Positions 13,558 through 50,688 are shown, counted from the first letter of the stretch. The stretch is 50,714 nt of DNA from Deltaproteobacteria bacterium (GCA_011042225.1 DQXT01000033.1:1-50714), one strand, 5' to 3'. A program made the numbers and translations. The notes: generated from the letters alone by a model not told the origin.

Positions 13558-14781
13558 CTAAATCTTAAACCATGACTTCATACGAAGGGTTACCTTGTTG
13601 AATATATTACCATCCCTTATTCGGAATTTTTTCTGGGAATGATGTTCCATGCCATAAAGCACAAGACCTACAGCAGTAGCAAACATGGGTCCGTTGACCA
13701 CATCCACCAAACCTGAAATCCTCTGTGGGAAGCCGATTCTTGTCGGCAACTGGAATACCTGATCCGCAATCTCAGCGGTTCCCGGCAGTAGGGCAGAGCC
13801 CCCGGTTATAACTATCCCCGAAGCCAATAGTTCCTTAAGTTCTGTCCGTTCTATTTCCTGGTCAATCAAGGTAAAAATCTCCTCTACCCTGGGCTCAAGT
13901 ATTTCAGACAGAATTTGCCTGGACAGAAGCCTGGGTTTACGTCCTCCCACACCGGGAACTTCTATCATCTGACCTCTGTCTGCCAGAGAATTGATACAGC
14001 TGCCGTCGCTTATCTTGATCTGTTCTGCCTCTTTACTGGGTGTCCTTAACCCGACTGCTATATCATTAGTGAGGTTGTTACCGCCAAGTCCCAGTACAGC
14101 TGTGTGTTTTATTGCACTTTCAGTAAATAGAGCAAGATCAGTGGTGCCACCACCAAAGTCCACAAGTGCAACACCCAGATCCTTTTCTTCCTGATTTAAG
14201 ACTGCTTCGGCCGAGGCAATGGGCTGAAAAACTATATCAACCACATCGAGCCCGGCCCTGTTTGCACACTTGATGAGGTTCTGGGCAGCCGTAACTGCTC
14301 CTGTCACGATATGTACCTTGGATTCCAGCCTTACACCGGTTATCCCTATAGGATCCAATATACCGCCCTGTTCATCTACGATATACTCCTGTGGCAGGAT
14401 ATGTATGACCTCTCTATCAAGGGGTATGGCTACCGCCCTTGCCGCATCTATAACTCTGTCAACGTCTTCCTGGGAGACCTCCTGGCCCTGTATGGCTATC
14501 ACCCCGTGACTGTTAAAACCCTTTATATGACTACCGGCGATGCCGATGAACACTGAGCTTATTTCACATCCGGCCATAAGTTCGGCCTCTTCAATAGCCC
14601 TTTTTATGGAATCGACCGTATTATCTATATTGACGACTACTCCCTTTCGCAGACCTACAGAAGGATAAGTCCCTACACCTATAATCTCGGCACTATTCTC
14701 ATTAAACTCGCCCACTACCGCACATATTTTAGTAGTGCCGATATCGAGCCCGACAATCATGTTACCGGGTTTTTCGACCAT
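13558..14781 (-). CDS. ftsA: cell division protein FtsA
   Basis: GLDIGTTKI, VDFGGGTTD, ITGGSA and FATAVGL. Confidence 0.98.
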   Translation of the reverse strand: MVEKPGNMIVGLDIGTTKICAVVGEFNENSAEIIGVGTYPSVGLRKGVVVNIDNTVDSIKRAIEEAELMAGCEISSVFIGIAGSHIKGFNSHGVIAIQGQEVSQEDVDRVIDAARAVAIPLDREVIHILPQEYIVDEQGGILDPIGITGVRLESKVHIVTGAVTAAQNLIKCANRAGLDVVDIVFQPIASAEAVLNQEEKDLGVALVDFGGGTTDLALFTESAIKHTAVLGLGGNNLTNDIAVGLRTPSKEAEQIKISDGSCINSLADRGQMIEVPGVGGRKPRLLSRQILSEILEPRVEEIFTLIDQEIERTELKELLASGIVITGGSALLPGTAEIADQVFQLPTRIGFPQRISGLVDVVNGPMFATAVGLVLYGMEHHSQKKFRIRDGNIFNKVTLRMKSWFKI

Positions 14782-43125: not shown

Positions 43126-45081
43126 ATGCCTATGTTTTATGTAAATCTAGAAAAACAAAACGAACTTACACAAAAACAGCTATCTGACCTACAGGCCATG
43201 TGGAATAGATGCGCAATGCGCATTGTTCTTTCTACTACGCTTGCAAAAAGCGGTCATCCTGGCGGCTCTCTTTCCTCCCTGCACACACTGCTTGTCATTT
43301 ACAGCATAATTAAACATCGTCCGGAGGAACCCCTCTGGCCTGACCGTGACCGGGTAGTCGTGAGCATTGGGCATATCTCTCCGTGCGTCTACAGCGTACT
43401 CACTGAATTCGGCTATTTTTCAGAGGAAGATTTCCTTACCGAATTCCGTCGTGCAGGTTCATCCTGTGCCGGCCATGTAGAACAAACCATGCCTGGAATT
43501 GAGTGGAATACTGGAAATCTAGGCCAGGGACTTTCAGTAGGTACAGGCATATGTCTTGCCCAAAATCTTATTGGCCGGCCCGGCAAAACGATCGTCCTCA
43601 TGGGTGACGGAGAACAGCAGAAAGGACAGATAGCTGAAGCAAGACGTTTTGCAACAAAGTTCGGACAAGGAAATTTGATAGGTGTAGTCGACAGAAACCA
43701 TCTTCAGATTGGCGGCTCTACTGAAGTTGTCATGCCTGTGCGTGTAAGGGATGAATATACTGCTGCAGGCTGGAACGTATTGTATGTACCGGACGGCCAT
43801 GATTTCCAGGCCATATTCAAGGCCCTGAAAAAGACATGGGCAAATGACGGCCTTATGCCTGACCGCCCCACTGTCCTTATCATGCGTACTGTTATGGGAA
43901 AAGGTATCTCGTTTATGGAGAACAAAGCAAGGTATCATGGATCTCCGTTGCCGGAGGAAGATGCCAGAGCAGCTTTGAGAGAACTAGGTCAAGATCAGGG
44001 CCTACTTGAGATATGGTTAAAGAACAGGGCTACACACAAAATAAAAGGCAATAACAAAAAATCAGAAATCAATTATCCATTTATTGACCCCGGAAAACCC
44101 ATTGTCTACGGTACTGAGATCAAAACAGATTGCCGTTCTGCATATGGCGCGGCATTAAAGGATCTAGCACAAAGAAACAATGTCCCTGGTTCTGCCCCAA
44201 AAATTGTAGGATTTAGCTGTGATCTGGAAGAATCAGTAAAGATGCAGGGGTTTCACAGCGTTTCACCCAGCGCCTTCATAGAGACAGGCATACAAGAGCA
44301 TCACGCAGCTACCTGTGCTGGAGCAATAAGCAGGGAGGGATTTGCTACCTTCTTAAGCACCTTTGGTGTCTTTGCTACGGCAGAGACTTATAACCAGCAC
44401 CGCTTAAATGACCTCAATAAAACCTATCTTAAAATTGTATCTACTCATTTGGGACTGGACGTTGGAGAAGACGGCCCAACCCATCAAAGTATAGACTATG
44501 TGGGACTCTTCAACAACCTGTTTGGCTTCTCCATATTCATGCCTGCGGATCCAAATCAAACCGACAGGATAGTCCGTTATGTAGCTATTAATCCCGGCAA
44601 TGCCTTCGTGGGTATGGGAAGGTCCAAACTATCAATTATTACCACAAAGGATGGGAAACCCTTTTATGATGCGGACTATGTATTTCGGCCTGGACATGCA
44701 GACTGGTTGAGACAGGGAGACAAGGCCACTTTTCTTACCTATGGCTCAGCCACATCTCAGGTTCTCAAGGCATGTTCAATTCTTGACTCAGCGGGTCTAT
44801 CAGTAGGGGTACTCAATATGGCATCTCTCAAACCCATAGACGGAAAATCAATTTTGGAGGCAGCCAAGAAAGGACCTTTGATAACGGTTGAAGACCATAT
44901 AGCCCATACGGGTTTAGGGGCCATAGTAGCGCAGGAACTTGTAAGTGCAGGTGTGCATCAACAACTCCTCACTATAGGTGTGACACACTATAGTTCTTCA
45001 GGTAAACCGGATGATCTGTATCGCCATCAGCACCTTGATGCTAAAAGTCTTGTCAAAAAGGTAAAAAAACTCTTAAGTTAG
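43126..45081 (+). CDS. tkt: transketolase
   Basis: SGHPGGSLS, RDRVVVS.GH, TGNLGQG, GDGE, GIQEHH, GEDGPTHQ and EDH. Confidence 0.93.
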   Translation: MPMFYVNLEKQNELTQKQLSDLQAMWNRCAMRIVLSTTLAKSGHPGGSLSSLHTLLVIYSIIKHRPEEPLWPDRDRVVVSIGHISPCVYSVLTEFGYFSEEDFLTEFRRAGSSCAGHVEQTMPGIEWNTGNLGQGLSVGTGICLAQNLIGRPGKTIVLMGDGEQQKGQIAEARRFATKFGQGNLIGVVDRNHLQIGGSTEVVMPVRVRDEYTAAGWNVLYVPDGHDFQAIFKALKKTWANDGLMPDRPTVLIMRTVMGKGISFMENKARYHGSPLPEEDARAALRELGQDQGLLEIWLKNRATHKIKGNNKKSEINYPFIDPGKPIVYGTEIKTDCRSAYGAALKDLAQRNNVPGSAPKIVGFSCDLEESVKMQGFHSVSPSAFIETGIQEHHAATCAGAISREGFATFLSTFGVFATAETYNQHRLNDLNKTYLKIVSTHLGLDVGEDGPTHQSIDYVGLFNNLFGFSIFMPADPNQTDRIVRYVAINPGNAFVGMGRSKLSIITTKDGKPFYDADYVFRPGHADWLRQGDKATFLTYGSATSQVLKACSILDSAGLSVGVLNMASLKPIDGKSILEAAKKGPLITVEDHIAHTGLGAIVAQELVSAGVHQQLLTIGVTHYSSSGKPDDLYRHQHLDAKSLVKKVKKLLS

Positions 45082-45479
45082 CCGCCCGAGAAAGGACTTC
45101 GCCGACAAGGGCGGCAGGACTTACATGCGGCTTAGTTTTTTTCTGGTTCGGTTATATTATCATCAGATATAAGATATAGAAGCTATCTATGGATCTTAAC
45201 CATATCTGTCTCAGCAAATCTGAATCACAATTATTGTCATCACAGCCTGTCAAAAAGGCCGCGGCCAATCTCCCTTCCACTCATCGGGACTCTATGAGTT
45301 TGCCTTAATCCTAAGTATTTAGGACCGCCGACATAGCCGGTATCTTACATATAGAAAAGCTTTAATATCTTAAATAATCTTGTCGATAAAAGCTTTAGAG
45401 TCTTAAATCCAGGAGTCTTGGTTGATAGTTCATGCATCTTTGATACAAAAATGCCTTTTATCTTTTGGGGAATTTAACC

Positions 45480-45881
45480 GTGGCTGATCTGATATTGACC
45501 CAATCGGTCCTGGATAAAACCAAAACAGAGATAGAAAACGCCCTTATTAAAGCAGGTGTTAATACTGTTCTCCTTATTGACGAAGCGGGCAATGTTGTGA
45601 CTGCTTGCAAACATAAAACCTGTACTCTTGACACAACTTCTCTTGCTGCACTGGCAGCGGCAAACTTCGGTGTCACTGCACAAATTGCAAAATTGATAGG
45701 AGAAGATGATTTTTCACTCCTGTTCCACAAGGGGAAAAAGGATAGCATACACTTTGCGCGGATAAACAATGATTTGATTCTGGTAACAATATTTGGAGAA
45801 AATGTATCTTTGGGCTTGGTAAGGTTAAGGGTCGCAGAATTGGCAAAAACCATAGAAAAGGCATTTGCCCAAATTTATTGA
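45480..45881 (+). CDS. mglB: MglB-type roadblock/LC7 GTPase-activating protein
   Basis: LLIDEAG, DTTSLAALAAANFG, AKLIGE..FSLLFHKG and LGLVRLRV. Directly upstream of mglA. GTG45480 is the likely start. Confidence 0.9.
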   Translation: MADLILTQSVLDKTKTEIENALIKAGVNTVLLIDEAGNVVTACKHKTCTLDTTSLAALAAANFGVTAQIAKLIGEDDFSLLFHKGKKDSIHFARINNDLILVTIFGENVSLGLVRLRVAELAKTIEKAFAQIY

Positions 45882-45883
45882 AT

Positions 45884-46501
45884 ATGGCGCTGATAAATCT
45901 TAGCAAAAAAGAAATACACTGCAAGATAGTATACTACGGTCCCGGGCGGTGCGGTAAGACCACGAATTTGCTCTATATATATAATGCAATGAACAATCAA
46001 GCCCGAAGTAAGATGCTGACTATTGAGACAAAAGGAGAAAGGACACTTTTTTTTGATCTTCTTCCCTTAAATCTGGGCAAAATAAATGGCTTTAATATAA
46101 GAATCCAGCTTTACACAGTACCGGGCCAAATCATTTATAAGGCTACCAGGAAACTGGTACTTAAGGGTGTGGATGGTATGGTTTTCGTTGCCGATAGTCT
46201 TAAAGTACGTCAGGGAAAAAATATGGAAAGTCTCCAAGATCTACACGATAATCTCCTTGACTACAATCTAAATACAGAAGAAATCCCAATCATTTTGCAA
46301 TTCAACAAACGTGATCTTGTGCCTACACCCATACCGACGCTGACTAAAGAAGAGCTTGAAATAGATCTGAACAGTCAACTTAATACAAAGGTTTTTGAAG
46401 CGGCAGCTATTAAAGGAATAGGGGTCTTTGAAACCCTGAAAGAAATAAGCAAAAGGACTATCCAATATGTGGCAAGAAAGCATCTCTCAACAAATCATTA
46501 A
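45884..46501 (+). CDS. mglA: MglA small Ras-like GTPase
   Basis: KIVYYGPGRCGKTTNL, ERTLFFD (intrinsic Arg), LYTVPGQ, GVDGMVFVADS and NKRDL. Confidence 0.93.
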   Translation: MALINLSKKEIHCKIVYYGPGRCGKTTNLLYIYNAMNNQARSKMLTIETKGERTLFFDLLPLNLGKINGFNIRIQLYTVPGQIIYKATRKLVLKGVDGMVFVADSLKVRQGKNMESLQDLHDNLLDYNLNTEEIPIILQFNKRDLVPTPIPTLTKEELEIDLNSQLNTKVFEAAAIKGIGVFETLKEISKRTIQYVARKHLSTNH

Positions 46502-46600
46502 AAAATATATTCTCAGGTTGTAACCCCCTATACTCTTTGATAGGCGTAAATAATTAGTCGGATTAGTTATTAAAAAATAAAATACAGAAGGAGAACGAGC

Positions 46601-48253
46601 ATGGATCAGACAAATAAAAACCCTGATCCCGAAGACTTCGCTAGAAACGTAGAAAGTACTATTGATGAACTGTTTTGTGTATCACGGCAGATAGAAATAG
46701 ACCCTTTGACTAATGAAATTAAGGACTTATCTCAAGATAAAACAGATAAAGGGCAGGGATTTCAGGTTATAGACCAGAGAGAAAAATATCCTGAAGAAAT
46801 CAAGCCTTCAGATACCATAGAGACAGGAGAACCTGTTGAACACATAGAAAATACCATTAACGAAAAGATATTGGAATCAAGCTCAGATCTGGAGCATGAG
46901 GGAAAAGATACTAAAGATGTGAATTTGGAACAACAACTCAGCCAACTCAACCAACTCTTGTTGACCTTGGAGTGGGAGGTCGACCAGATACAAGCAGTAT
47001 CAGCTAAAAACCTGGTAGAGACAATACTGAAAAATCCAGAGATAGAGGCAGATAAAGATCTCCACGAACTGCTCAGTCTTATGATAAGACTCCTTGAAGG
47101 GATGGCGGATCATCCTGAAAAAATGCCTACTTTCAGCCCAGAGGTCCTGAAAAGAGGTCTTGACACCTTTAAAAACCTTGTTTGGAATGAAGGGCGGGAG
47201 CCAGGGGCTAGAAAAGAGGCCTTTAGATCCATAAAAAAGGAACTTGAATCGGCAATAGACATGGATATAAGCGAAATTGACCGCGAGATATCCTTGAAGG
47301 CGGACTCAGAACACCATATTGAAGAGGTCGATGAGCTTGAATCCGGGGCTAAATATGATGCCCAAAAAAACGCCCAAAAAGAGAAAACTTCCAATCTACA
47401 GGGACATATCGATAATTCCATTCCAGAAACGAACATACAAGAAAAAGCGGCATCCATTGATCCGGAGTTACTTGAACACTCGGTGCTTGTACGTGCGGTC
47501 AAATCCCATATCAAAATCCTTGATGACTGCATAAAATACATTCTACCGGTTGAAAAGCTCCTTGCCCAGACTCAGGGGATGGAAAAACTACATCATTTTC
47601 AGCAAAATATTAAAAACAGGCTTGAAGAACAAAAAAAGATATTGGGAAAGGCATTAAAGGGCGATTACGAACCATCTTCTGATATGAGTAATTATGCTAC
47701 TCAACGGATCGAAGACATTACCATAGAAATTGACAAAACAGAAACGCCTCCGGTGAGCACTTCCTGCCCGTGGAATGAACTTTTGACTGGCCAGTGGAAC
47801 CAAAAGCAAGTTGCATTTATACCTGAACATGTCGCATTTGCAGGTCCCATCCCCTTTTGGGCAAAAAAAGGATTTAAAAATCTGAAAACTTTTAAATTAA
47901 AGAAACTCAAGACCTGGCCATGGACAAAAATTCAGCCAATGATGCATGGGAAATTGTCAAATCGGAAAGAATCGGAGCTTATAAGGCTCGAATTCCCGGT
48001 ACTACAAAAATCGATTTCATCTTCCGATCAGTCTCAGCTCTCAAACCCGACTTTATTGGTCCTCTCTAATGAAAATAAAGGGCTGGTTCTAATGCTGGAT
48101 ACTCCGCTAGAATCCATTTCTATAACTCCTGAGTATTCCTGGGAACCATCCACAAATAACAATGGACAATGGGTTGGCAACCTGGGTATAGATAACAAAC
48201 AGATATCCGTGGCAACACTGGAAAGCCTTTTAAATACACTGCCAAATGAATAA
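46601..48253 (+). CDS. hypothetical protein: acidic linkers, Hpt-like helical bundle, coiled hairpin and CheW-like C-terminus (by eye)
   Basis: 550-aa ORF with AGGAG SD whose stop overlaps the next start. Domain calls are pattern inference only. Confidence 0.75.
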   Translation: MDQTNKNPDPEDFARNVESTIDELFCVSRQIEIDPLTNEIKDLSQDKTDKGQGFQVIDQREKYPEEIKPSDTIETGEPVEHIENTINEKILESSSDLEHEGKDTKDVNLEQQLSQLNQLLLTLEWEVDQIQAVSAKNLVETILKNPEIEADKDLHELLSLMIRLLEGMADHPEKMPTFSPEVLKRGLDTFKNLVWNEGREPGARKEAFRSIKKELESAIDMDISEIDREISLKADSEHHIEEVDELESGAKYDAQKNAQKEKTSNLQGHIDNSIPETNIQEKAASIDPELLEHSVLVRAVKSHIKILDDCIKYILPVEKLLAQTQGMEKLHHFQQNIKNRLEEQKKILGKALKGDYEPSSDMSNYATQRIEDITIEIDKTETPPVSTSCPWNELLTGQWNQKQVAFIPEHVAFAGPIPFWAKKGFKNLKTFKLKKLKTWPWTKIQPMMHGKLSNRKESELIRLEFPVLQKSISSSDQSQLSNPTLLVLSNENKGLVLMLDTPLESISITPEYSWEPSTNNNGQWVGNLGIDNKQISVATLESLLNTLPNE

Positions 48254-50603
48254 TACTTCAACTTCAGACAATCTAAAATCCATGTTAGCGGAAGCCGATC
48301 TTTATTATAGTCAAGGTCTTAACGAAGAGGCCCGCATTATCTGTTTAAAGCTTCTACAAATGACCAGTGATAAATCTGATCCTGTCCGTACTGAAATAGA
48401 ATCCCGTCTGAAAAAACTCCAGTGTGATGGTATGGAAACAGTACAATCGGGAGAGATAAATTTTACCACCAGCCCTGAAGATCTCAAACCTGAAGATCTC
48501 AAAGAATATCAGGACAATAAATTCAGTAGTTGTATAGGTCTCATAGATGCCGGATTTTATTTGGAGGCCATAGAAGAATTAAAGACCTTACTTGAAGCAG
48601 AATACAGACCAGGGATAATTCGAGCAAAGATCGGAGAATCATATCTACAGATGGATATGCCCTTTGAGGCACTTGAATATCTGGAAAAAGCGCTTGAAGA
48701 TACGCAACTGTCCAAAGACGAAAGGCTGGATGTACTATATCAGCTAGCACTTACCCATGAACGAACCGGGGCGATGCCTAAGGCCATCGAGGCGCTTGAA
48801 CAAATCATCCGCCTTGATCCTGCATTTAGAAATGCCAAACAGAGGCTTGAGGGCCTTTCCAAAACCGCTCAGGAATATGGCCGTTTCTATTATCTGATTC
48901 GCAATCAGTCCATCTCTAAGGAACAACTCAGCAGGACCAAAGAATTGGCCAAACAAGGGAAAAAATCCATAGAAAGTATTCTGCTAAACCAGTTTGGCGT
49001 AGACAAAATGGAACTCGGCCGCTCACTTGGCGAATATTACCGATGCCCCTTTGTGGAATTTGACGAACTGGAAGTAGGGAGTACACCTTCTTGCGTGCGC
49101 GGTATCAAAGAACACTTTTTCAGGACCAATTCCTGTGCACCTATTCGCGAAAAAGCGGGGACCCTTATAGTTGCATTAGATAACCCCCATGATTTGGCAA
49201 AGACGGACAATATTAGAAGGGTCCTGAAAGCCAAAAATTTTCAATTTGCAGTAGCACTAAAGGAAGACATCAACAGATTCATAGACTATTTCTATGGAAA
49301 ATATTCTGCAGAAGGATCTGATGATGATGTGTTTGAGCAACTGGAACTGGTTGAAGAAGATTCGGAATTCGAAGAAGAGGATTCCAGCTTAGCATCAGAG
49401 GCCGATAGCGTAGTAGTCCAGATAGCCAATAAAATTATAGAGGATGCCTTTCAGCGCAGGGCCTCTGATATACATATTGAAAGCCTAGCAGGCAAACGGG
49501 GTGCCCTCGTCCGCTTCAGGATTGATGGCGATTGCATGCGATATCAGACAATTCCATATAACTATAAGCGGGGCCTATTATCCAGAATCAAAATCATGTC
49601 TAATCTGGACATTGCCGAAAAACGCCTGCCTCAAGATGGAAAAATAAAATTCAAGACCCGATCCGGCAAACCCCTGGAACTTCGTGTAGCCACACTCCCC
49701 ACAACGGAAGGCAATGAAGATGTCGTACTGAGGTTATTGGCCTCTTCTGATGCTATGCCAATTGATCGCATAGGGCTCCTTGATCAAAATCTTAGTCAGC
49801 TAAAGCAGCTTTTGCAGTTGCCTTATGGACTTATACTGGCAGTCGGTCCTACCGGATCAGGAAAAACAACCAGTCTGCATTCTGCACTTGGCTATATAAA
49901 TCGACCTGAAAAGAAAATTTGGACAGCCGAAGATCCTGTAGAAATCATGCAGGAGGGATTGCGTCAGGTACAGGTAAGGCCCCATATTGGTCTGACCTTT
50001 GCTCGGGTTCTCAGGGCCTTTTTAAGGGCCGATCCGGATGTAATAATGGTAGGCGAAACCCGAGATGAAGAAACTGCTATAACAGCAATAGAGGCATCCC
50101 TGACAGGGCATTTAGTCTTTTCAACCCTCCACACCAATTCCGCCCCTGAGACAGTTACAAGGCTTTTAGGGATGGGAATGGACCCTTTCAACTTTGCTGA
50201 TGCCCTTTTAGGCGTCTTGGCTCAAAGGCTTGTAAAAAGACTCTGCCCTAAGTGTCGTGAGGCATATCAGCCTGATGACAATGAAAAAAAACATATTCTA
50301 CACGAATACGGGTTTCATCCGACTCATCCCCTAGAACTATCAAAACTGAACGACATAACACTTTATCGGCCCAAGGGTTGCCAATATTGCAACAGGACCG
50401 GTTTCCGAGGCAGGCTTGCAATTCACGAACTACTCATATCGGATGACGGTCTCAAAAAACTTATACAAGATAAAAGGCCTGTGGGAGAGATCCGAGAATA
50501 TGTCATGAACCAGGGAATGTTTACCTTAAAACAAGACGGTATACAAAAGGTCTTAAATGGAGATACAGACCTCAAGCAGATTAAAGCAGCCTGCATAAGG
50601 TGA
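48246..50603 (+). CDS. PilB/GspE-family secretion ATPase with N-terminal TPR module
   Basis: ASDIHIE, RFRIDG, LDIAEKRLPQDG, Walker A GPTGSGKTT, TAEDPVE, LRADPDVIMVGETRD, GHLVFSTLHTN and the CPKC/CQYC Zn site. aa 1-205 are TPR-like. Confidence 0.93.
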   Translation: MNNTSTSDNLKSMLAEADLYYSQGLNEEARIICLKLLQMTSDKSDPVRTEIESRLKKLQCDGMETVQSGEINFTTSPEDLKPEDLKEYQDNKFSSCIGLIDAGFYLEAIEELKTLLEAEYRPGIIRAKIGESYLQMDMPFEALEYLEKALEDTQLSKDERLDVLYQLALTHERTGAMPKAIEALEQIIRLDPAFRNAKQRLEGLSKTAQEYGRFYYLIRNQSISKEQLSRTKELAKQGKKSIESILLNQFGVDKMELGRSLGEYYRCPFVEFDELEVGSTPSCVRGIKEHFFRTNSCAPIREKAGTLIVALDNPHDLAKTDNIRRVLKAKNFQFAVALKEDINRFIDYFYGKYSAEGSDDDVFEQLELVEEDSEFEEEDSSLASEADSVVVQIANKIIEDAFQRRASDIHIESLAGKRGALVRFRIDGDCMRYQTIPYNYKRGLLSRIKIMSNLDIAEKRLPQDGKIKFKTRSGKPLELRVATLPTTEGNEDVVLRLLASSDAMPIDRIGLLDQNLSQLKQLLQLPYGLILAVGPTGSGKTTSLHSALGYINRPEKKIWTAEDPVEIMQEGLRQVQVRPHIGLTFARVLRAFLRADPDVIMVGETRDEETAITAIEASLTGHLVFSTLHTNSAPETVTRLLGMGMDPFNFADALLGVLAQRLVKRLCPKCREAYQPDDNEKKHILHEYGFHPTHPLELSKLNDITLYRPKGCQYCNRTGFRGRLAIHELLISDDGLKKLIQDKRPVGEIREYVMNQGMFTLKQDGIQKVLNGDTDLKQIKAACIR

Positions 50604-50611
50604 GGTAACCA

Positions 50612-50688
50612 TTCAGAGGTTCAGGGTTCAAAGGTTCAAAGGTTACACTGAAAGATGAACATCGAACATCGAACGTCCAACGTCGAAT
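50612..50688 (+). repeat. short tandem 7-8-bp repeats
   Basis: AGGTTCA-GGGTTCA-AAGGTTCA-AAGGTTA followed by GAACATC-GAACATC-GAACGTC-CAACGTC-GAA. Confidence 0.75.

Follow-up and report, generated by a model that had tools for sequence, protein, structure and literature searches.

A conserved mglB–mglA–X–ATPase locus of Desulfobacterota and its probable coupling to a type IV pilus motor

By which route might a small-GTPase switch act on the motor of a type IV pilus? The question is raised by four adjoining genes at one end of a contig of a Deltaproteobacteria bacterium (DQXT01000033.1), which encode MglB, MglA, a 550-residue protein here designated X, and an ATPase with N-terminal tetratricopeptide repeats (TPR). 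The contig, analysed in its entirety and referred to below as the window, is 50,714 bp long and belongs to a 2.05-Mb assembly that is 96% complete. In Myxococcus xanthus, the TPR protein SgmX is the intermediary through which MglA-GTP brings PilB to the leading pole (PMC11580455), and its TPR12–14 are bound by MglA-GTP (PMC7668184). SgmX is a separate protein of 14 TPRs, and the portion of the literature account drawn on here states its route to PilB to be unknown, with no direct contact with PilB detected (PMC11580455). The analysis makes it fairly probable that the four genes constitute a conserved operon-like module of Desulfobacterota (Thermodesulfobacteriota), which couples an MglA/MglB switch to an extension-type ATPase of type IVa pili.

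Four adjoining genes and their conservation

The open reading frame (ORF) listing places the four genes head to tail on the + strand:

45480–45881, + strand: mglB, 133 aa from GTG 45480, with TTG 45465 as an alternative opening
45884–46501, + strand: mglA, from ATG 45884, with TTG 45878 as an alternative opening
46601–48253, + strand: X, a putative 550-aa cytoplasmic scaffold of kinase-less CheA-like architecture, without a Pfam or NCBIfam family
48246–50603, + strand: TPR::MshEN::PilB-type hexameric ATPase, 785 aa

The mglB and mglA genes are separated by 2 bp when mglA opens at ATG 45884, or overlap by 4 bp if TTG 45878 is used, and GGGGAA lies 9–14 nt 5' of the GTG codon of mglB. X follows mglA after 99 bp, and its stop codon (48251–48253) lies beyond the start of the ATPase (48246), so that the two genes share 8 bp in the sequence ATGAATAA. 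These coordinates agree with the initial annotation, which had reported four co-directional genes with spacings of 2 and 99 bp and a stop/start overlap. It had also proposed that a GTPase, its GTPase-activating protein (GAP), a chemosensory-derived scaffold and a TPR-bearing ATPase are encoded together in a non-myxobacterial anaerobe; four adjoining + strand genes of these kinds are present, and the host is of Desulfobacterota type, going by the labels of its relatives. The genes may be co-transcribed. No terminator-like site was found on the + strand inside the unit, in scans whose promoter and terminator counts lay below the shuffle means and which are uninformative for that reason.

The initial annotation had suggested that conservation of the neighbourhood be followed across relatives, and the linkage is kept in both samples that were compared. 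Of 41 genomes from the order to which the window belongs, 38 encode X, and the order and strand of mglA, X and the ATPase gene are preserved in all 16 fetched loci, which represent 11 families of the order, with mglB seen in 15 of the 16 at E ≤ 1e-5. A broader scan with two motifs of the TPR head, using one genome per species, returned 77 loci, 25 of them cut by contig ends and 52 with at least 3.6 kb of upstream DNA; mglB and mglA both lie upstream of the TPR gene in 51 of these 52 loci, the exception (L047) having mglA only. The TPR-head loci carry Thermodesulfobacteriota labels, including Seep-SRB2 and Dissulfuribacterales metagenome-assembled genomes, Desulfurivibrio, Dissulfurimicrobium, Thermosulfurimonas dismutans and Thermodesulfatator, and span Dissulfuribacterales-like, Desulfobulbales-like and Thermodesulfobacteria lineages. 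An X profile built from the closer loci also finds the middle gene in seven of seven Thermodesulfobacteria and Syntrophobacteria loci (E 1e-16 to 6e-31). Spacing is generally tight, with a median gap of 49 nt between mglA and X (n = 53) and of 17 nt between X and gene 4, where 31 of 49 junctions are ≤30 nt or overlapping. The linkage of the four genes is far beyond chance.

Upstream of the unit, the window's own genus has ompA, skp and tkt. Over 45081–45115, beginning at the tkt stop codon, lies a GC-rich inverted repeat (GCCGCCC ... GGGCGGC), with a T-run approximately 18 nt further; it may terminate transcription of tkt, in which case a new transcription unit would begin with mglB, and was not called by the terminator scan. 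Downstream, the contig ends 111 bp past the ATPase stop codon, and two short tandem arrays occupy part of this interval (TTCAAAGG repeated 4.2 times at 50612–50644 and GAACATC repeated 4.4 times at 50657–50687), which may be the reason why the assembly breaks here.

The switch and the scaffold

Both identities proposed for the first two genes were borne out. MglB matches the Pfam family Robl_LC7 with 43.7 bits (cut-off 23), placing it among the Roadblock/LC7 proteins, while on the NCBIfam MglB equivalog NF052242, which is Thermus-type by name, it scores 57.8 bits against a cut-off of 200. Its orthologues in relatives share 55–93% identity and are encoded directly 5' of mglA. MglA aligns over residues 3–197 with M. 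xanthus MglA (PDB 5ymx; 205.7 bits, E 5e-60), is assigned to Arf/Ras by Pfam and is the sole MglA-profile match in the genome. The P-loop, intrinsic Arg, catalytic Gln and NKRD motif that it was said to retain were all found, as GPGRCGKT, Arg55 (M. xanthus R53), T80-V-P-G-Q84 (with Gln84 corresponding to Q82) and NKRD, and the P-loop, Arg, TVPGQ and NKxD positions are invariant or almost so across 50 orthologues. The residues that define MglA-type GTPases (PMC3000849, PMC4316618, as far as these sources are drawn on here), namely GxxxxGKT, Thr in place of Asp in G3 (TxPGQ), the Arg finger, Gln and NKxD, are therefore present beside a tandem mglB. Homology to studied proteins thus gives good support to MglA as a probable GTP/GDP switch and to MglB as its probable GAP. 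MglB homologues of 278–281 aa, with an N-terminal extension of approximately 145 aa of no assigned nature, occur in two other loci (L167:4471-5316 and L169:8403-9239).

X matched no Pfam or NCBIfam family and has no hydrophobic segment (KD19 maximum 0.88), and a PDB profile search with it returned designed helical repeats only. Its architecture was examined in an AlphaFold (AF2) model built from 53 orthologues, with a mean predicted local distance difference test score (pLDDT) of 71, in which an N-terminal helix, an acidic disordered stretch, a bundle, a second disordered stretch, a hairpin and a beta-rich domain follow one another. The three folded parts are:

46916–47275, + strand: X residues 106–225, a predicted five-helix bundle like CheA P1/Hpt, with no conserved His; pLDDT approximately 90
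47462–47659, + strand: X residues 288–353, a long helical hairpin in the model, tentatively at the position of the CheA P3 dimerisation domain
47762–48235, + strand: X residues 388–545, a predicted double beta-barrel like CheW and CheA P5; pLDDT approximately 90 in the full model

The likeness to chemosensory proteins is carried by the C-terminal domain and by intermediate homologues. Modelled alone, the C-terminal domain reached a pLDDT of 88.5 and a predicted template modelling score (pTM) of 0.84, and in a comparison with 48,161 PDB representatives only CheA-P5 and CheW structures scored (Z 10.3, 9.8, 9.7, 7.9 and 6.9, the three best with 135, 125 and 129 aligned residues, respectively), the next unrelated fold attaining only Z 3.0. 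The best Foldseek matches for X are likewise all CheW or CheA. The N-terminal part of the X profile matches bridging homologues of 418 and 448 aa whose genes come straight after an MglA gene in two further families of the phylum, and with 30.7 and 28 bits against a cut-off of 23.5 these proteins are true carriers of Pfam CheW. In addition, the ESM Atlas clusters nearest to X (scores 0.92 and 0.91) consist of Thermodesulfobacteriota proteins of 432–465 aa, 68–84% of which carry CheW, and lower-ranked clusters combine CheW with Hpt.

The remainder of the CheA-like order is less firmly placed. The bundle aligns with Salmonella typhimurium CheA P1 (VIA Z 14.1, root-mean-square deviation (rmsd) 2.7, 117 of 129 residues; the chance range for bundles is approximately 13–14) and with Rhodobacter sphaeroides CheA3 P1 (Z 13.3), designed four-helix bundles reaching Z 11.8. 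W125 and E126 within it are invariant or almost so. No column in residues 100–230 has His in more than 13 of the 53 sequences, and a conserved phospho-accepting His is thus absent; Pfam Hpt (PF01627) matched neither X nor the 53 family members. The hairpin and C-terminal domain together align, weakly, with CheA P3–P5 of 6s1k_A (model residues 293–549, 188 residues, rmsd 13.7).

Several results weigh against a chemosensory origin of X, and at sequence level no link to CheW is seen for the window's own clade. The Z score of the P1-like bundle lies in the range that helical bundles attain by chance, and its His is missing; Pfam CheW (PF01584) did not match X and matched one of the 53 family members (E 0.018); hhalign of the X family against 24 CheW sequences gave a probability of 5.4%; and Pfam assigned a real family to none of 28 mid-distance family members, with a single marginal match to cytochrome b562. 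On the model, X nevertheless looks like a kinase-less CheA-like scaffold that has dispensed with P2, the P4 kinase domain and the phospho-His. The initial view of the 550-aa protein as chemosensory-derived is upheld by its CheW/P5 fold, the P1-like bundle and the bridging homologues with Pfam CheW, a body of support that is chiefly structural. The family to which X belongs carries no name and comprises 1136 cluster representatives at E ≤ 0.001, 420 at ≤1e-10 and 97 at ≤1e-30.

Two further observations concern this family. Other members of the phylum encode proteins of 860–1229 aa for which Pfam gives no family, and in those of L151, L152 and L153 the P1-like bundle of X occurs twice in tandem. 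An equivalence of X with M. xanthus MasABK was weighed and rejected, given that MasA and MasB are membrane proteins whose genes diverge from mglBA, while X is devoid of hydrophobic segments.

The motor, its relatives and the function of the module

The fourth gene joins an N-terminal head to a complete motor:

48246–48890, + strand: ATPase residues 1–215, N-terminal hairpin motif (EADLYxxQGLxEEA) and TPR module, the proposed adaptor
49038–49298, + strand: ATPase residues 265–351, MshEN (N1), Pfam PF05157, 54.3 bits
49398–50582, + strand: ATPase residues 385–779, T2SSE motor, Pfam PF00437, 394 bits

Within the head, Pfam locates TPR at residues 128–193, and E16, Y20, L25, A29 and A108 are invariant in 50 sequences. 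PilB proteins are characterised by Walker A, an Asp box, Walker B, a His box and a tetracysteine motif, together with an N-terminal MshEN/N1 domain. The corresponding motifs are all present in the TPR-ATPase (Walker A at 534, Asp box at 562, Walker B at 599, His box at 620, CPKC at 667 and CQYC at 712). In a phmmer search of the PDB, it scored 388 bits with M. xanthus PilB (3jc8), 378 with Geobacter PilB, 336 with GspE and 107 with PilT; database names for the protein are generic. In a quick tree computed from the MshEN and ATPase part only, the TPR-ATPases (15 of 15) group in a single clade that excludes the other paralogues, with a Shimodaira–Hasegawa-like approximate likelihood ratio test (SH-aLRT) value of 99.

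The same head occurs on another catalytic domain. In four loci with Syntrophobacteria labels (L103, L104, L108 and L110, the last being the same as L160), gene 4 encodes the TPR head followed by a Ser/Thr kinase (Pkinase E 3e-26), and the head can therefore be regarded as modular. X is 721–788 aa long in this group, and in a further family (L158) X is again followed by a TPR::kinase gene.

More distant loci place mglB, mglA and X among pilus genes. The X profile matches 69 of 301 genomes of the phylum, and in 17 of 20 loci chosen from these an X-like gene stands directly after mglA. Two of them (L164 and L171) have the order REC-PATAN, mglB, mglA, X, PAS-HisKA kinase, sigma-54 response regulator, PilM, PilN and PilO, with PilP also found in L164, and mglB–mglA–X is thus embedded in a pilS/pilR-like–pilMNOP cluster. 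In loci of Desulfobulbales type, a REC-PATAN gene and a gene of approximately 220 aa without a known family lie right after the ATPase gene. It is these two settings, the pilMNOP cluster and the REC-PATAN gene, that link the module to pili. Four additional loci (L161, L165, L172 and L174) resemble L164 and L171 by matching gene sizes, and a TPR protein of 305–323 aa is encoded nearby in this group. The standalone TPR proteins of L164, L165, L171 and L174 match the head profile with E values of approximately 1e-26 to 1e-27, and are not claimed to be an unfused form of the head because the profile attains E 1.9e-21 (74 bits) even with generic TPR proteins encoded in the genome of the window.

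Other lineages rearrange or shorten X. In three loci of one family (L156, L157 and L159), a paralogue of 356–365 aa that matches only the C-terminal CheW-like domain of X adjoins mglA, in the order mglB, mglA, short paralogue, three PATAN genes, Cache/HAMP, class III cytochrome c, X and TPR::ATPase, the mglB–mglA end of L159 lying outside the fetched stretch. Five loci (L162, L163, L166, L168 and L175) have a short X of 230–314 aa, to which the profile aligned by its N-terminal part only. In other families of the window's order (L015, L016, L017, L019, L020, L146 and L147), a divergent cluster faces mglB and encodes HDOD, two or three REC-CheB_methylest-like proteins (one with an N-terminal PATAN), CheY and a full CheA of 908–937 aa; the CheB-like domains have weak scores and may be non-catalytic.

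This context lends good support to a reading of the locus as a putative GTPase-to-pilus-motor module, and supports mglBA, X and the hairpin–TPR head as a unit inherited together, whose usual output in this branch would be a PilB-type motor. MglA would cycle between GTP- and GDP-bound forms, with MglB as a GAP ending the signal. X would act as the soluble, kinase-less CheA-like scaffold that accompanies mglA across the phylum, and the N-terminal hairpin–TPR head of the ATPase as the effector adaptor. By analogy with MglA-GTP on TPR12–14 of SgmX, MglA-GTP may bind the TPR head directly or via X, and its binding could draw the PilB-type hexamer to, or license it at, the PilM/PilC base of the pilus, the presumed site of MglA-GTP. 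One polypeptide would then do what the separate SgmX does for PilB in Myxococcus, and the module might be polar and capable of switching. The CheW-like domain of X could connect the module with input of a chemosensory type, for instance from the CheA/CheY/PATAN cluster of the sister families.

It is unlikely, though far from negligible, that the module is real and its ATPase powers some other type IV filament or secretion device, or is regulatory, with MglA controlling adhesion, DNA uptake or partner contact, for example, instead of pilus polarity. The results that favour this possibility are also those that weigh against a pilus motor. The TPR-ATPase is one of four PilB/GspE-type paralogues in the genome, none of which attains the NCBIfam PilB cut-off: on TIGR02538 the TPR-ATPase scores 504.6 bits against a required 675.65, with 483.1 on the GspE model. 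The same ATPase set, with PilT-type matches, recurs in five of five other genomes of the order. An orphan paralogue of 579–589 aa beside rsmE is equally PilB-like by its 375 bits to Geobacter PilB, and two platform proteins were found for the four ATPases. In addition, no pilC, pilT or pilM adjoins the TPR-ATPase in the window, where the contig ends 111 bp 3', or in the flanks of six annotated relatives; its association with pilus genes is indirect, by way of mglBA–X in L164 and L171.

Against such a device stands, however, the comparison among the four paralogues. The TPR-ATPase has the widest margin of PilB over GspE (388 versus 336 bits), the orphan scoring 375 versus 361, and with M. xanthus PilB it scores 388 bits versus 357 for the C33 copy and 330 for the C12 copy. 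Two other paralogues have clusters of their own. One lies in a GspG-E-F cluster, and the other, on contig C12 (L031:9052-11436, - strand), is an N-terminally extended PilB-type ATPase of 794 aa, with a partial PATAN/DUF4388 match, an MshE-type cyclic di-GMP (c-di-GMP)-binding motif (NF053729, 154.8 bits), T2SSE and 349 bits to PilF; its orthologous slot in a complete relative holds a 549-aa ATPase in an ATPase–T2SSF–AAA_22–secretin cluster. The position of mglBA–X inside the pilSR-like–pilMNOP cluster in other lineages and the PATAN regulators that neighbour the module argue in the same direction. The genome also encodes a type IVa pilus core, consisting of PilM, two secretins, a Myxococcus-type PilC and two PilT-like matches. 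Our best guess is that the TPR-ATPase is a PilB candidate, and the best one in the genome, short of being a proven family member. The initial designation as a TPR::PilB ATPase can thus be kept in part: a TPR module is fused to a PilB-type motor that is nearest to PilB structures, while, with the cut-off missed and four paralogues present, the name PilB is provisional. Elsewhere in the window (13558–14781, - strand), a 407-aa ORF in a run of - strand ORFs has a weak PilM_2 match (29.2 bits with its in-frame neighbours) and may be FtsA rather than PilM.

The locus had been presented as a candidate self-contained pilus polarity switch. Polarity switching is a possible role, and the description as self-contained finds no support, since the HDOD/CheB-like/PATAN/CheY/CheA cluster adjoins the unit in sister families and CheA, CheW, CheB and REC-PATAN are encoded elsewhere in the genome (one CheA, two CheW, one canonical CheB and one REC-PATAN). 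The window's genome, which is 96% complete, yielded no counterpart of the multiple CheB-like/PATAN cluster that the sister families carry. A 95%-complete member of the genus (G008) has no CheW-domain match and keeps X, indicating that docking to a classical array is not obligatory and counting against the proposed chemosensory connection.

These results bear on a second alternative, which we consider improbable: that the locus is a static on/off or targeting device in which MglA-GTP gates the ATPase on chemosensory or c-di-GMP input, with no pole-to-pole switching. It would fit the lack of a Frz-like cluster adjoining the unit in this genus, where tkt, skp and ompA lie upstream, as well as the missing CheB-like/PATAN cluster and the kinase that is sometimes the gene-4 output, as expected of a general signalling cassette; no RomR/RomX-type guanine nucleotide exchange factor turned up either, though no search was aimed at one. 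However, MglB is kept beside MglA in 51 of 52 loci, as it is where GAP asymmetry sets polarity, and CheA and CheY adjoin the unit in sister families, as would be expected for reversal control. That the genes are merely adjacent, in a conserved order without functional meaning, is hardly credible given that at least three class-level lineages keep the order with differing flanks, that stop and start codons overlap, and that gene 4 swaps its catalytic domain and keeps its head.

The coupling of MglA/MglB to an extension-type pilus ATPase thus remains the preferred reading, and a bolder version of it can be entertained tentatively, with rather more doubt than belief. The locus would then be an ancient modular cassette of Desulfobacterota, in which X plugs MglA into chemoreceptor-type scaffolds and the hairpin–TPR head relays the state of MglA to interchangeable outputs (PilB in cis, a Ser/Thr kinase, or the pilSR-like–pilMNOP neighbourhood). 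As a Rosetta stone for the SgmX–PilB step of Myxococcus, the TPR::PilB fusion would show that SgmX-type effectors act by direct contact with the PilB N-terminus, and X would be a missing evolutionary link that explains how chemosensory systems came to be wired to MglAB in the first place.

A proposed TPR adaptor that is part of the ATPase itself and is encoded alongside MglA and MglB makes the contact between adaptor and PilB directly testable with three or four soluble proteins from one operon. The X family is sizeable, and a CheA-minus-kinase fold that travels with mglA suggests a structural bridge between chemosensory scaffolds and small-GTPase polarity modules. Carriers of the unit include relatives labelled as syntrophic methane-seep sulfate reducers and sulfur disproportionators, in which pili may matter for cell–cell contact, and its occurrence in many sulfur-cycling bacteria would make it a natural handle on how GTPase switches reach the pilus motor.

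Comparison with known systems

The initial annotation had not recognised the arrangement as a described one, and no matching description was found in the literature. No published account was found in which TPR is fused to PilB or mglBA is followed by a conserved third gene, although Table S2 of PMC4316618, which covers MglA neighbourhoods, may contain it. In the sections of that source on which we draw, PATAN–MglB neighbourhoods are noted, and those of Group 1, 4 and 5 MglA are said to 'vary widely', with occasional PATAN genes.

Several studied systems share individual features with the module. CheA and CheW scaffolds have in common with X the CheW/P5 fold of residues 388–545; residues 106–225 may correspond to P1, in which case the order P1–hairpin–P5 would also follow CheA. 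In contrast to them, X is without P4, P2, a conserved phospho-His or a Pfam CheW or Hpt match, and travels with mglA instead of with genes for methyl-accepting chemotaxis proteins or CheA. In Synechocystis, PATAN regulators bind PilB, docking on its N-terminal part according to the portion of the preprint used here (10.1101/2021.06.11.447907), and PATAN genes neighbour the present module in relatives; here, however, the proposed adaptor is a TPR module fused in cis, and the window has no PATAN gene. In M. xanthus, MasK is a Ser/Thr-type kinase encoded beside mglBA and tied genetically to MglA (PMC3546991), which parallels the TPR::kinase form of gene 4, whereas masABK is divergent from mglBA and encodes membrane proteins, with TPR unmentioned in the main text of that source.

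The closest parallels combine MglA with a TPR protein and pili. In Bdellovibrio, a non-myxobacterial MglA is tied to the TPR protein Bd2492 and to pili (PMC3983030, PMC7668184), although the TPR protein is separate, and neither an ATPase fusion nor a CheW-like partner is described in the parts of these sources that were used. The MglA/MglB–SgmX–PilB system of M. xanthus, as far as it is set out in the portion of PMC7519303 used here, shares with the module an MglA GTPase paired with a Roadblock GAP, a TPR module whose effector role is a presumed one in the present locus, and, on the output side, an extension ATPase of the PilB family. It differs in that SgmX is a separate protein, whereas in the present locus TPR forms the N-terminus of the ATPase, all parts lie in one putative operon, and a kinase-less CheA-like protein is an apparently obligate third partner. 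The MglA–TPR–PilB logic is known already; the novelty appears to lie in the fusion, the operon and the CheA-like partner.

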